NCBI RefSeq assembly: GCF_006345805.1
Contig: NC_043010.1
Coordinates: 32,302,001 to 32,366,000 of the forward strand
Direction: 5' to 3'
Length of the DNA: 64,000 nucleotides
Source of the DNA: Octopus sinensis
Taxonomy: Eukaryota
The first letter of the stretch is position 1; each line of letters begins with the position of its first letter. The notes under the pieces were generated by a model. That model was not told the DNA's origin. It ran no database searches and saw only the letters and a list, made by a program, of their open reading frames with translations. Made by a program: the position numbers and the translations under genes. This document shows, piece after piece, positions 3,333 to 64,000 of this stretch.

Positions 3333-3628
3333 AGATTATTTGCCAACATAATGTAGGGGCAATTGTTACTGTTATTTAGCCCCAGGAAACATCGTCTCCA
3401 GCTGACTATATGATTCACTATCTGCGTCCTTATATTTTTGAACAAGAAAGTTTACCGTCCTCACTCAGTTCAAAGCAATATTTGCATACCAATGGTTCCT
3501 GGGTTATTTCCCTTCATGAGCACAGAATAACTGTGTTGTATAGCCAGCTGGAGATGATGTTTCCTGGGGCTAAATAACAGTAACATTCGTCCTAACCAGG
3601 ACTGCCACATTATGTTGGCAAATAATCT
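3333..3628. repeat. Fold-back inverted repeat (arms ~3333-3410 and ~3539-3628)
   Basis: AGATTATTTGCCAACATAATGT...TGTTACTGTTATTTAGCCCCAGGAAACATC.TCTCCAGCTG.CTATA is mirrored on the right arm; ~128-bp spacer. Confidence 0.9.
3483..3524 (-). ncRNA. Degenerate hammerhead ribozyme motif in the IR spacer
   Basis: Minus RNA UGUG-CUCAUGA-AGGG(AAAUAA)CCCA-GGAAC-CAUUG-GUA-UGCA has the type-I layout but two core substitutions (G5C, A13G). Confidence 0.55.
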
Positions 3629-3902
3629 TTAATCTAGAGTACTGTTACTGAATGTCTCTTGTTCAGAGATTTAGAAATAATAATTTTCTATTTATATATA
3701 TGCATGTATATGTGTGTGTGTGTGTGTGTATGAGTGTGTGTATGTATGTATTTATATAAGCATACGTATGTGTGTATATATAAAAGCATGTATATATTAA
3801 TGTAATTGAAACAATTGTTGCATTTCGGAGGTGCGATCTAAAATAAAGATATGATTTTCTTCATACATATTATTTGTATTATATATATATTGTATATATA
3901 TA

Positions 3903-4213
3903 GTGGAGGTGCAATGGCCCAGTGGTTAGGGCAGCGGACTCGCGGTTGTAGGATTGTGGTTTCGATTCCCAGACCAGGCGTTGTGAGTGTTTATAGGGCG
4001 AAAACACCTAAAGCTCCACGATGCTCTGGCAGGGGGTGGTGGCGATCCCTGCTGTACTCTTTCGTCACAACTTTCTCTCACTCTTTCTTCTGTTGGCCTG
4101 CTCGCTTAGCCAGTGGGGTGGCGTCATTTGAAGGCTAAAACAATGCTAAGCGCATTGTGACCAGCGATGTGTAGCAACATCTGATAGCCTGGTCGGTCAC
4201 GTGATCACGTGAT
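3903..4213 (+). mobile_element. tRNA-derived SINE
   Basis: A-box TGGCCCAGTGG and B-box-like GGTTTCGATTCCC; body shared with 45036-45342 (GCGAAA(A)CACCTAA(A)GCTCCACG, CACAACTTTCTCTCACTCTTTC); flanked by (TA)n. Confidence 0.85.
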
Positions 4214-4289
4214 ATATATATATATATATATATATATATATATATATATATATATATATATGTGTGTGTGTGTGTGTGTTTGTGTATAC

Positions 4290-4552
4290 ATTTTACAGAC
4301 AAGAAAGTAATAGTTCAAATGCAGTATAGTCGTGAAAATGGCAGAAAGATTGGGTATTTACCCTTATAAGATGGAAAAAGTTGTCAGCAGACAGCCACGG
4401 GACTTGTACCCACATCCACACTAACTGGCCCACTGACAACAATCTCTTTCAAATTAAGTGTGAAATATAGCTTTTGGAATGCAACAACATTTTGTTTCTA
4501 CAAACTTTGGGAGTGTCACTGTGTATCATATTTTACAGACAAGAAAGTAATA
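4290..4552. repeat. 23-bp direct repeat flanking a 217-bp segment
   Basis: ATTTTACAGACAAGAAAGTAATA occurs at 4290-4312 and 4530-4552. Confidence 0.85.
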
Positions 4553-4559
4553 ATATTAA

Positions 4560-5850
4560 CACATACTGATCCCCAAGTCTCTCACAGCCTATGACTCTGA
4601 GAGTACAGTGCCTTTGGGCAGTGGTGCTTTTGTGAGTTGATAGTGCAGTGCTTGAAATTTTCCAGCATTAAACTGCATGTTCTGTACTTTAGCCCACTTG
4701 TATATTACTTTCAGGTCCTGTCGCAAGCTTGTGACATCATCTGGATTCTTTATTGCCTGTAATAATTTTGTATCATAGCTAGTGACAGTGGCCATTTGAG
4801 TGACCATGAGCATGTCTAAGTGAGCTATTATAAACAGTAATGGTTTCAAGAGAGTTTCCTGGGGAACACCACTTAGAATTTGAGTTTCTTCAGAGAAGGC
4901 AACTGCCTAACTTATATCCTTTGGGAATTCATGCAGTCACTCTCTCAGTTTATCAACTATGTCAAGGTCTCACAGCTTCTCATATCATGTCATGATCTAT
5001 CTTATTAAATGTTTTTGTGAAGACAAGATATATCCCATTGACATCAAGCAACTGTTTCAAAATTTTGTTCTAGGGCTGTAAGAGCTGTGTGGGGCAGCTT
5101 CTTCCTGGATGTAAGCCATGCTATCTATTGTTCAGTAAGTCAATTTTTTTTAGGAATATTATCAGTTTGATTCTGATGATTCATTTCATTACTTTACTGA
5201 TGTGTGAAGCCAGAGAGATTGGCCTGTAGTTTTTGGCCTCTGCTCTACTTCCACCTTTGTGGATAGGGCATATAATGCCACCTTTTAGCTTTTTAGGAAG
5301 TTTATCACTTGCAAGGAATTTCTGGAAAAGTATCTGAAGTGGTTTCACTAAAGCCTACTTACATGATTTGAGGAGAATAACTGGGAAGCTATCAGGACCA
5401 GTCGCTGAGCTTGAGCTCATTTTATCTATGGCCACTGTTATATCTGCCTCTTCAATGCTGATGTAATCATCTGTAGGTTTGCAGTATTAAAGAATTCAGC
5501 CAGGTTTTTATCTGCATGTGTCCCAGTGGGGAGGTAAAGACACTTTGAAACTGTTCACTGAGAACTTCACTTGCCCTTTTTGGGTTGACAGACAGTGAGC
5601 TATTCCCTTGGAACACCAGTCCTATTTTATATTGTACAGTGGCTGTTTCTTTTGCAAATACATAGAAAGCTTTAGGGTTTGTTTTTATGCTTTCTACAGC
5701 TCTGTTCCCTCTCCCTGCTCTTTCCTTTCCATGAGTGAGTTTGAGTTTGTTTTCGATTTCCAGGAGTGTCCATCTTAAAATAGATTTCTCTCTTTCCTTC
5801 AGTTGCCTAATCAGCCAGTTTGAAACTTTTTATATGCATTCTGGAGATCT
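4560..5850 (-). pseudogene. Degenerate CR1/Jockey-group LINE reverse transcriptase
   Basis: Minus frames give GPDSFPVILLKSCK, IICPIHKGGSRAEAKNYRPISL, GVPQ..L.PLLFII, a decayed YADDTK (SYDTKL) and LRQDLKVIYKWAKVQNMQFNAGKF. Confidence 0.8.
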
Positions 5851-5994
5851 TGTTTGTTGGTATGCTGGCCATGTGTGTGTTTGTGTATGTGTGTGTGTGT
5901 GTGTGTGTGTGTGGTGTGTGTGTGTGTGTGTGTGTGTGTGTGTGCGCGCGCGCGTGTGTGTAATATATATATATATATATATATATATATAAAA

Positions 5995-61340: not shown

Positions 61341-61341
61341 T

Positions 61342-61790
61342 TATCATCATTACTATCATCATCATTCTCTTCATCACTGCTATCTTCATCATTCTCTTCA
61401 TCATCCCCATCATTACTATCTCTTTATTATCATTACTATCATCATCATCATCATTCTCTTCATCATCACCATCATCATCATTCTCTTCATCCTCACCATC
61501 ATCATCATCATTGCTATTCTCTTCATCATCACATCATCATTATTCTCTTTATCATGACCATTGTCATCATTCCCTTCATTATCATTATCATCATCATCAT
61601 CATTCTCTTCACCATCATCATTCTCTTCGTCACTACCATCGTCATCATTCCTCCCATTATCCTTACCATCAGAATCATTCTCTTCATCATTACTATCATC
61701 ATTATTTTCTTCTTCCTCACCATTATATTATCATCCCAATGACAATCAACATTTCACTATAATTACCACCAATATCATCATCATCATCCT
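61342..61790. repeat. Degenerate (CAT)n tract with recurring TCTCTT interruptions
   Basis: Directly visible. Confidence 0.9.
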
Positions 61791-63323
61791 TGTTAAATCC
61801 TCCTTTTGTCTGCAGTTGTTATACTAGTTTCTGTGTTTTGTGTGTATGCATGAGTGAGTGTTGATGGTATATTATGCTTTGTCTGTCTGTGTGTTGGAGG
61901 TATGAGTTAGTAGTATTATGTATGCATTGATGGTATTCTTAGTAAAAAGACGTGGAATATAGAAATGTACAGAAGACAACTAGGGAATAAAAATAGTTAA
62001 ATTCTTGCAATAATTTTAATGTTTGTATTTTGATTTTTGTGCTAGCATAGTTTGAACAGTAAAGCATGAAAACACTCATGCACTTAAACACAAACATGCA
62101 TACATACATACGCACTCACACTCATTCACTTAGACATATTAAATGAAAATATAAAAATAGCACACAAAAAATATATAATGAATTCTCATCTGTGTGTTTG
62201 ACCTCAGAAATGATAGCGGGAAGAACCACAGGATTTTTGTGTGAATGAAGAAAAAGAAAAATGTATTGTGAATATTACACTTTCCCTCTCATCCAAGACT
62301 AAGAAGGGAGGTGGATATGAAAAAGAATGTAATGATTATAATAATGAAATAATAGAATAAAAACAGAAATGTTTTCATGATATTGCAGACCTCAAGGAAA
62401 TTCATTTTTAGAATTTTTTTGTTTTATTTTCAAACAAGATCTTAGAATCAGGTTTCAATAACAACAGATATTCTCAGGATAATTTTGATGAAGGTATTTA
62501 GGAGAAATTTTATATTTTGCTCTTGTTATTGTTTAACGCACAACTTTACTCTGATTTAGCATATTTGTGATCAAAAGCATTCCTGCTGTAATCATACCAC
62601 CTTTTTTATTTTCAGACACATTTCATCTAAGACTACATTATTCAATGTGCCTTGCCACTTTTAAAATACTGATATGTAATTTGAGGGAGACCTGGTTCCT
62701 ATTTCTAACATTTGTGGGCTCTGACAGTAGCTATTCATTGCACTTGTATTAGTTATTGAATTTGTTGTTCTATATATACAAGGTTACTACATACCAAATT
62801 AATAGTGGACCAACACTACTTTTTTCTTCTTTCCTAATATACATCATAAATATACTTAAAATTTATTAAAGACCATCATGTATTTATATATATAATAATA
62901 ATAATAATAATAATAATAATAATAAAAATAATAATAGGTAAAATTAATTAATTAACTAGTAATTAATAATTCCACCAAGTAGAATTCAGCATGAAAAAGG
63001 ACCATTTTTCGGTAAACTTAAACAATACTTTATAATTACGAGTATAATTATAAAATATTGTACATATATATACATAAATATATATATATATATATATATA
63101 TATTATATATATATATATATAGAGAGAGAGAGAGAGAGAGAGAGAGGAGAGAGAGAGAGAGAGAGAGAAAGAGAGAGAGAGAATTGTACTGGATACAATT
63201 ATACTTACCTATATGCTGAAAATAGATGTCAAATACATCCAGCCACTGCAAATCGTCACTATATATACTCAGGTTGAAAGTGGGGAAAGCAGACTGATTT
63301 AAAATTCAAAAATAATTCAGATA

Positions 63324-63380
63324 GTTTTGGGTTGATCAATTTCTGGATTAATTTAATAACTTTTCGTTCATCAGTAAAAC
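63324..63380 (-). ncRNA. Degenerate hammerhead motif (left arm)
   Basis: GUUUUA-CUGAUGA-ACGA...UCCA-GAAA-UUGAUCAA-CC-CAAAAC; palindromic helix III, U16.1 lost. Confidence 0.55.
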
Positions 63381-63744
63381 ATACTGAGTGAAATAAATGA
63401 AAATATTTATACACAGAAAAACACAAGCAAATGTGAGTACATATAAATGTTCACAAATATATACACATCGAATTTTCTTAGTTCCCCTCAACATGTGTTA
63501 TTTGGTCAGAATAGTACAGAAGTAAATGAACTGACCCGAAGTAAATGGGAAACACTTAAACATAATTAAAAGATAAAATCATTAAAATTAATGAATTTTA
63601 TCAATGGCCAGCATATAAAAAATAACCTTTTAGGTAAAATACGTATATAGAGATATATAATTATATATTTGTGAATATTTATGTCTACTCACATTTGCTT
63701 GTGCTTTTCAGAGTATAAATATTTTCATTTATTTCACTCAGTAT

Positions 63745-63801
63745 GTTTTGCGGTTGAAGGAAATATTATTAAACTAATCCAGAAATTGATCAAGCTAAAA
63801 C
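63745..63801 (+). ncRNA. Degenerate hammerhead motif (right arm)
   Basis: GUUUUG-CGGUUGA-AGGA...UCCA-GAAA-UUGAUCAA-GC-UAAAAC; 5' core and cleavage triplet are mutated. Confidence 0.4.
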
Positions 63802-64000
63802 TATCTGAATTATTTTTGAATTTTAAATCAGTCCATTTTCCTGCTTTCAACCTGTCTGTATATAGGGAAAATTTGCAGTGGCTGGATGTATTTGATGTCT
63901 GTTTTCATCATAGAGACATGGCAGCCTCCGTGCCCTTCAGTATAATTGTATCCTATACAATTACATAACTTTATATATGTATTTTACCTAAAAGGTTATT

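Follow-up and report, generated by a model that had tools for sequence, protein, structure and literature searches.

Five inverted repeats in an Octopus sinensis genomic region as probable head-to-head insertions of Penelope-like element 3' ends

This analysis concerns five inverted repeats, IR1 to IR5, in a stretch of 64,000 nucleotides of the Octopus sinensis genome (assembly GCF_006345805.1, contig NC_043010.1, positions 32,302,001 to 32,366,000; the whole stretch is called the window and all positions are counted within it). Our data make it probable that these hairpins are short, dead copies of the 3' ends (pseudo-long terminal repeat, pLTR, plus tail) of several families of Penelope-like elements (PLEs), inserted head to head, the inversion likely being remade at each insertion. 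They most likely represent a known insertion pattern and not a new element class. We regard them as stubs whose inversion formed at insertion because the hammerhead ribozyme motifs borne by the arms read outward, the ends lie at or near (TA)n, a tail is found on one side and, for the family of IR2, the depth of public contigs drops at the centre and the junctions vary. Together with a coding counterpart in the same window (IR7), these observations favor the first of two options put forward in a preliminary description made from the letters alone, namely inverted pLTR insertions from several PLE families.

Five fold-backs at TA-rich tracts

The window is AT-rich (34.6% GC), eukaryotic and contains many microsatellites. 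Self-BLAST of the window and arm alignments confirmed all five inverted repeats described beforehand, with arms of 85-330 nt and approximately 76-95% identity (calculated without gaps, some microsatellite overhang being included). IR1 (3325-3636) has arms at 3325-3410 and 3539-3636 with 89.5% identity, and its spacer contains the 5' sequence by which one copy exceeds the other. IR2 (14356-14743), a member of a repeat family of very high abundance, has arms at 14356-14540 and 14550-14743 (about 92-95%) around a 9-nt centre. The arms of IR3 (49010-50143) measure about 330 nt (approximately 49010-49338 and 49811-50143, 85-87%) and enclose an AT-rich spacer of 472 nt with no coding match. IR4 (51126-51371) has short arms (51126 to about 51231 and about 51264 to 51371, approximately 76-80%) with its junction at the hammerhead, and IR5 (63183-63962) has arms of 280-300 nt (63183-63463 and 63662-63962, 85-87%) separated by a spacer of about 200 nt. 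In the self-BLAST the five showed no similarity to each other, as stated in the preliminary description, and no second copy of any fold-back was found within the window. The IR3 spacer also holds a small imperfect inverted repeat (49563-49652).

The earlier statement that all five lack an open reading frame (ORF) holds in that a profile of the reverse transcriptase and endonuclease (RT-EN) of Hydra-type PLEs finds no match inside IR1-IR5; it has to be qualified for IR5, which contains one stop-to-stop frame of 97 amino acids (63675-63968), likewise without a match to this profile. The reported proximity of most repeats to TA-rich microsatellites extends to all of them, a (TA)4+ tract lying within 62 nt of one outer end in 5/5 repeats and within 2 nt in 3/5; 14.5% of random window positions lie within 70 nt of such a tract.

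Hammerhead motifs

The exact word CTGANGA occurs 39 times in the window, four of them inside the five repeats (two in IR3, one each in IR4 and IR5), whereas IR1 and IR2 lack it. With a strict type-I descriptor three starts were obtained, two with a helix III insert of at least 2 nt: 49259 (-) in IR3 and 36103 (-), the latter outside any fold-back. The relaxed descriptor gave 10 starts, seven with such an insert: three in IR3/IR4, three behind Penelope-like coding remnants (15101, 34775 and 36103) and one at 8363, which is unexplained and may be a chance match. Over 20 shuffles in total the strict descriptor matched once and the relaxed one eight times, a mean of 0.4 per shuffle versus the seven real hits.

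A graded hammerhead score, devised after the motifs had been seen, was calculated per copy and compared with 300 real background draws from the window. Draws scoring as well numbered 4/300 for IR1, 33/300 for IR2, 5/300 for IR3, 0/300 for IR4 and 35/300 for IR5, with a combined p of about 8e-5 for the five given by this post hoc score, and hammerheads exceed the background in 3/5 repeats (IR1, IR3 and IR4). On these scores we take three motifs as real and those of IR2 and IR5 as decayed look-alikes, so that the claim of a full or half type-I hammerhead in each repeat is retained for IR1, IR3 and IR4 and weakened for the other two. In Rfam, no hammerhead family appeared among 126 matches at E<=1, which included only microsatellite-driven microRNA matches. 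The monomer folds of ten motifs did not exceed shuffles in stability (z between -1.46 and 1.40), and monomers say little on dimer-type hammerheads.

All type-I features (CUGANGA, GAAA, UH site, helices I-II and palindromic helix III) are present in IR3 and IR4 and incomplete in IR2 and IR5. The left-arm hammerhead of IR3 (49167-49263, -), which is the strict hit, has an intact core whose halves are 72 nt apart, helix III CAUG and a GUA site; its right-arm counterpart (49886-49989, +), a relaxed hit, has 77 nt between the core halves and a decayed helix III. That of IR4 (51148-51244, -) has an intact core and an extended helix II of 68 nt, the insert between the core halves folding as a long stem, and the right arm retains the palindromic helix III CAGCUG and the GUA site (51333-51349, +). 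The IR1 hammerhead (3483-3526, -) lies in the spacer and is a decayed type-I motif (CUCAUGA, 3-bp helix II, GGAA, CCAUUGG, GUA-type site UA), predicted to be inactive from its two core changes. At the IR2 junction, the hammerhead-like motif (14538-14578, +) keeps GAAA-CCAUGG-U(U/A) intact with a 5' core reading ACGAUGA/CAAUGA; position 14571 is A in about half of the depth of run X1, giving a GUA site, and the family core looks decayed or variant, with ACGAUGA where CUGAUGA is expected in three runs. Both motifs of IR5, at 63374 (-) and 63751 (+), are decayed and have lost U16.1.

Orientation, tails and junctions

Arm-borne motifs read outward in IR2, IR3, IR4, IR5 and IR6, inward scores being at the background level. 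IR6 (20390-20536) is a fold-back overlooked in the preliminary description, with 71-nt arms and a junction inside a decayed hammerhead-like core (20461 onward, +) recognized by eye only, whose graded score was matched by 30/300 background draws. The outward orientation fits two 3'-end copies joined 5' to 5' in IR2-IR5, the motif being significant only in IR3 and IR4; that of IR1, located in the spacer, is uninformative on direction.

In endonuclease-bearing PLEs, an inverted 5'-truncated copy, a one-sided tail of 30-40 bp and (TA)n targeting have been described (Craig et al. 2021, PMC8557442; this and the other papers cited are drawn upon in the portions available to us). A one-sided tail is clear in IR2, where 45 nt (14311-14355, -) are present at the left end only and run into (TA)n, as they do in further copies of the family, the right end abutting (TA)n directly with no extension. 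IR1 and IR6 likely carry one-sided extensions of about 60 nt, the likely tail of IR1 (3637-3693, +) preceding a TA-rich run and being proposed from the legend of Fig. 2 in the same paper; the boundaries of IR3-IR5 are indistinct. In four of the six fold-backs (IR1, IR2, IR4, IR6) the start of the longer copy coincides with the core or precedes it by no more than about 45 nt, and in IR3 and IR5 the arms extend 80-90 nt upstream of the core before the spacer begins.

The IR2 family in public contigs

Contigs of four public runs were placed on 14311-14742 at 85% likeness (2388, 1697, 1700 and 25 records). The summed depth of the family peaks at 3-6e5 near the 3' end versus 185-650 at 14521-14535, so that the centre lies 527-3245-fold below the 3' end in the three large runs; in run X10 (25 contigs), which may be an RNA sample, none extends over 14506-14535. 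Single contigs, among those listed, have a depth of 14-80, and none of the pieces listed bridges the centre. Loose ends before 14545 (three each in X2 and X10) show that other copies continue upstream in different sequence, whereas those before 14312 are (TA)n, the tail being joined straight to (TA)n in 20 loose ends of X1 and 11 of X3. Three further joints from left arm to right arm were recovered (14356>14604, 14459>14626 and 14491>14619), each in one contig per run at a depth of 19-45, and all three skip the hammerhead motif. Counting that of IR2 itself, the family thus has four different junctions. The IR2 arm is part of a very abundant linear family within which the IR2 junction is rare, and a self-propagating hairpin element in which the same junction recurs, the second option of the preliminary description, is not supported for IR2, since the centre is rare and the other junctions differ.

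We also considered that the IR2 centre might be helix II itself, which is ruled out by the loose ends at 14545. A sister subfamily shares the 3' region of IR2 and diverges at 14490 / 14603 into a GAAA-CC(G/A)G-T(A/C) word, which suggests a second hammerhead type on the 3' end of this family.

Coding Penelope-like remnants in the window

Four Hydra-type pieces are present in the window, along with a single piece of Neptune type. A Hydra profile built from 46 of the 120 listed relatives of the largest piece (36038-40114) finds the three others, at 117-1115 (+), 1385-2706 (-) and 14714-14923 (+); Pfam assigned no family to six PLE pieces. The second of these belongs to IR7 (1243-2812, -), in which a 5'-truncated RT-GIY-YIG remnant of Hydra type (1385-2706) is flanked on its 5' side by its own 3' end in inverted form (arms 1243-1378 and 2673-2812), with no scorable hammerhead left. 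IR7 is a coding form of the same layout as the five hairpins, and homology of an arm to the pLTR of an RT-GIY-YIG element is shown for IR7 only.

Three pieces end in a hammerhead without inversion (36038-40114, 14793-15156 and 34746-35917). The first (-) is a near-complete, broken element lying between two (TA)n tracts, with RWK, DKT, LYRDD and CxCx5C motifs. The Hydra clade is characterized by RWK, DKT, a CxCX5C linker, a C-terminal GIY-YIG, TA targeting and a hammerhead (PMC8557442), and on these sequence features (C-terminal GIY-YIG, RWK, DKT, linker, hammerhead and (TA)n target) we would place the element in this clade. Its hammerhead (36069-36108, -) looks intact and scores 39.8 bits with the Hydra model (E 2.9e-9). 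The element ends 65 nt past this hammerhead, and 65 + 134 nt compares with the span from hammerhead to start codon in tandem relatives. It shows no pLTR duplication, a 3' region of 1.17 kb ahead of the hammerhead, an ORF interrupted by some 470 nt of GC-richer inserted sequence (39360-39830), and two ends that look as if a tandem or circular unit had been opened at a single point. The second (14793-15156, +) is a Hydra-type endonuclease stub reaching 14923, followed by a hammerhead at 15096-15156 (Hydra model E 0.025), with no inverted partner. The third (34746-35917, -) is a Neptune/Nematis-type GIY-YIG remnant (34919-35917) with a CX4CxxC linker and a minimal hammerhead at 34775 (0/100 shuffles), for which no inverted partner was found. 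A direct repeat (33390-33600 / 34233-34420) adjoins this remnant, with CTGAAGA at 34229 and the word GAAACGTA near 34200 on the + strand, and the region 33390-34420 is possibly a more complex tandem/inverted insertion.

The best hammerheads of the window are found outside fold-backs, behind Penelope-like coding remnants. The fold-back at 31051-31573, made of two dispersed repeats resembling short interspersed elements (260-nt arms, 80% identity), has no hammerhead (156/300), which contradicts the proposal that every long fold-back carries one.

Hydra-type relatives in metagenomes

From 475 metagenome matches, 78 Hydra-type loci were kept. A sense-strand hammerhead is present in 59 of them (74 sense versus 2 antisense matches), and in the 55 distinct motifs the two halves of the core are 10-29 nt apart. 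Covarying helices are seen in 21 aligned Hydra hammerheads, a subset chosen for pairing. Where copies are in tandem, about 170-200 nt separate the motif from the start codon that follows; because of this spacing and of the 65 + 134 nt of the window element, we consider the last 100-200 nt of such elements to be non-coding and motif-bearing. An inverted copy is joined at the 5' side in 6/78 loci, at varied points, four of them inside the ORF. The helix III words CAGCTG-TA, CATG-TC, CTTCAAG-TA and CTATAG-TA of these relatives resemble those of IR4, IR3, IR6 and IR2, respectively. No match to a 25-nt IR2 pattern was found in metagenome contigs, nor to the Hydra profile in viral contigs. Short non-coding fold-backs flank some Hydra loci (L023:4796-4962, L002:386-512 and L049:3147-3222) and have no hammerhead by the strict descriptor.

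Proposed mechanism and comparison with known systems

We propose that an RT-GIY-YIG protein would nick both strands of the (TA)n target and that two cDNAs would be primed on the element RNA, one at the tail and one about 45-65 nt inside, yielding a tail on one side. Both cDNAs would end prematurely, in many cases at the hammerhead or a little upstream of it, and the two shortened cDNAs would be joined 5' to 5', head to head. The hammerhead would be a passenger located in non-coding sequence 65-200 nt from the element 3' end and, since it lies in this non-coding 3' end, a stub of a few hundred bases would tend to hold a hammerhead and to lack an ORF. That two nicks and two starts operated in the present case is what we infer by analogy with the lizard Poseidon element, for which cleavage of both strands with extension and two RT start sites are reported in vitro, and whose insertion does not need hammerhead cleavage (PMC11167929).

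The hairpins resemble the inverted PLE insertions described in the available parts of PMC8557442 and PMC3846280 in having arms joined head to head, a tail on one side (clear in IR2), (TA)n targets, a hammerhead close to the 3' end and, in the IR2 family, variable junctions, but the copies are here too short for any ORF and their PLE parents are putative. In Schistosoma mansoni, minimal hammerheads paired at 100-700 bp on opposite strands were ascribed to truncated PLEs (Cervera and de la Pena 2014, PMC4209133). The pairs of IR3 and IR5, 631 and 377 nt apart, are comparable, as are the extra nucleotide after A9 and the palindromic helix III, whereas in IR3 and IR4 the core halves are 68-77 nt apart, instead of the helix II of 7-8 bp described in that paper and of the 10-29 nt in the 55 Hydra relatives. 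Plant PLE hammerhead motifs with about 50 nt are listed in the supplement of PMC8557442, and the portions of PMC7229834 and PMC3088659 available to us describe no type-I motif of animals with a helix II of 70 nt. Hydra-clade elements, in which a hammerhead is always present (PMC8557442), show a motif style similar by eye to that of IR1, IR5 and IR6, but no arm of IR1-IR6 has a sequence link to them and the Hydra model misses the five motifs. As with the animal non-LTR (non-long terminal repeat) retrozymes (PMC7229834; bioRxiv 10.64898/2026.07.22.740005), the hairpins are non-coding and bear type-I hammerheads, and an origin from PLE pLTRs is proposed for these retrozymes. Retrozymes, however, are head-to-tail tandem units with a hammerhead each, and each fold-back is one inverted pair, most of the cores having decayed; no such tandem arrays were found in the window. 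We found no description of a palindromic, non-autonomous, hammerhead-bearing PLE class in the literature, in which coverage of subscription journals was incomplete.

Alternative explanations

Several observations weigh against an origin of the five hairpins from PLE 3' ends joined anew at each insertion. The arms of IR1-IR6 gave nothing beyond A-rich chance matches among the 78 relatives, those of IR1-IR5 did not match the coding remnants of the window in the self-BLAST, and six 15-nt arm words were absent from the supplement of Craig et al. 2021, in which line breaks could hide matches. The spacers of IR3 and IR5 carry no endonuclease remnant. The decayed motifs of IR2 and IR5 are not significant singly (33/300 and 35/300), and the covariance model, built from those 21 of the 55 Hydra motifs that have a 7-nt helix III, detected none of the five fold-back motifs at E<1. 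The junction test covers IR2, one of the five repeats; the depth of contigs does not equal copy number, contigs may be interrupted at hairpins, and of the three further joints two have sides shorter than 30 nt and were flagged as unreliable. Finally, two metagenome loci (L072:790-3068 and L050:2512-4796) share a 2.29-kb Hydra-type unit with 97.5% identity and an identical junction between unrelated flanks. This unit consists of an inverted hammerhead arm, a 5'-truncated ORF, a 3' arm and a tail, and the left arms share variants absent from the right arms.

This last case hints at an inverted unit copied whole, or at an assembly mis-join. That some fold-backs, most plausibly IR3 and IR5 with their long non-coding spacers, are non-autonomous hairpin units copied whole by a Penelope-like RT is nevertheless unlikely in our view. 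The shared unit, junction and left-arm variants of the two loci would be expected from such copying, and the Repbase consensus Penelope-13_HM is listed with an attached inverted copy; yet the two loci are contigs of another animal that may be mis-joined and carry coding sequence, the IR2 junction is rare relative to its family and accompanied by different ones, and the window has no second copy of any fold-back. We give the same low probability to the combined proposal that IR3/IR4 have a type-I hammerhead with a 70-nt helix II eluding standard descriptors and that IR3/IR5 are non-autonomous hairpin retroelements copied whole by a Penelope-like RT from both hammerhead-bearing ends.

Slightly less probable still is self-priming, in which one cDNA, or one stub already inserted, would have folded over at helix II or at another local hairpin formed by a short palindrome and primed its second arm itself, as proposed at the palindromic junctions of Adineta Penelope elements (PMC3846280, in part). 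The junctions of IR2, IR4 and IR6 lie in or beside the core or helix II and that of IR1 has a 5-bp hairpin, but the IR2 centre is no family hairpin, other copies differing before 14545, and the junctions of IR3 and IR5 are at least 80-90 nt from the core; nor does such self-priming by itself account for an element end at each outer side, only one of them bearing a tail.

That IR2, IR5 and also IR6 are fold-backs of other repeat families with chance hammerhead-like words in AT-rich DNA, as their background scores (33/300, 35/300 and 30/300), the ACGAUGA instead of CUGAUGA in three runs of the IR2 family and the failure of the Hydra model on these motifs would allow, is similarly doubtful, given the presence in IR2 of a tail, of TA targeting and, where the site is predicted, of a GUA variant, the GAAA-CC(G/A)G-U(A/C) word of its sister copies diverging at 14603/14490, and the outward direction and distance from the end shared with IR3 and IR4.

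Other features of the window

A Tc1/mariner-type remnant with 30-bp terminal inverted repeats (18802-20076; Pfam DDE_3, E 1.7e-13) is an inverted repeat without a hammerhead, and a perfect-loop fold-back of 33 nt beside (TG)n (13076-13142) is too short for hammerhead scoring. The segments 8015-8359 and 11430-11498 are, by eye, what we take to be a remnant of a non-LTR element with the look of a restriction-like endonuclease type; the latter segment is a 69-nt duplicate lying beside a 650-nt (TGTA)n array.

Implications

If the five hairpins are head-to-head insertions of PLE 3' ends, many short unexplained palindromes in this genome would be Penelope-like footprints. Their junctions, which in 4/6 fold-backs lie at the core or precede it by no more than about 45 nt, could map the endpoint of reverse transcription, a step still undefined for PLEs. 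A real hammerhead with a long helix II, if true, would broaden the descriptors used in searches, and whole-unit copying of inverted elements, if true, would add to Penelope biology a class resembling miniature inverted-repeat transposable elements.

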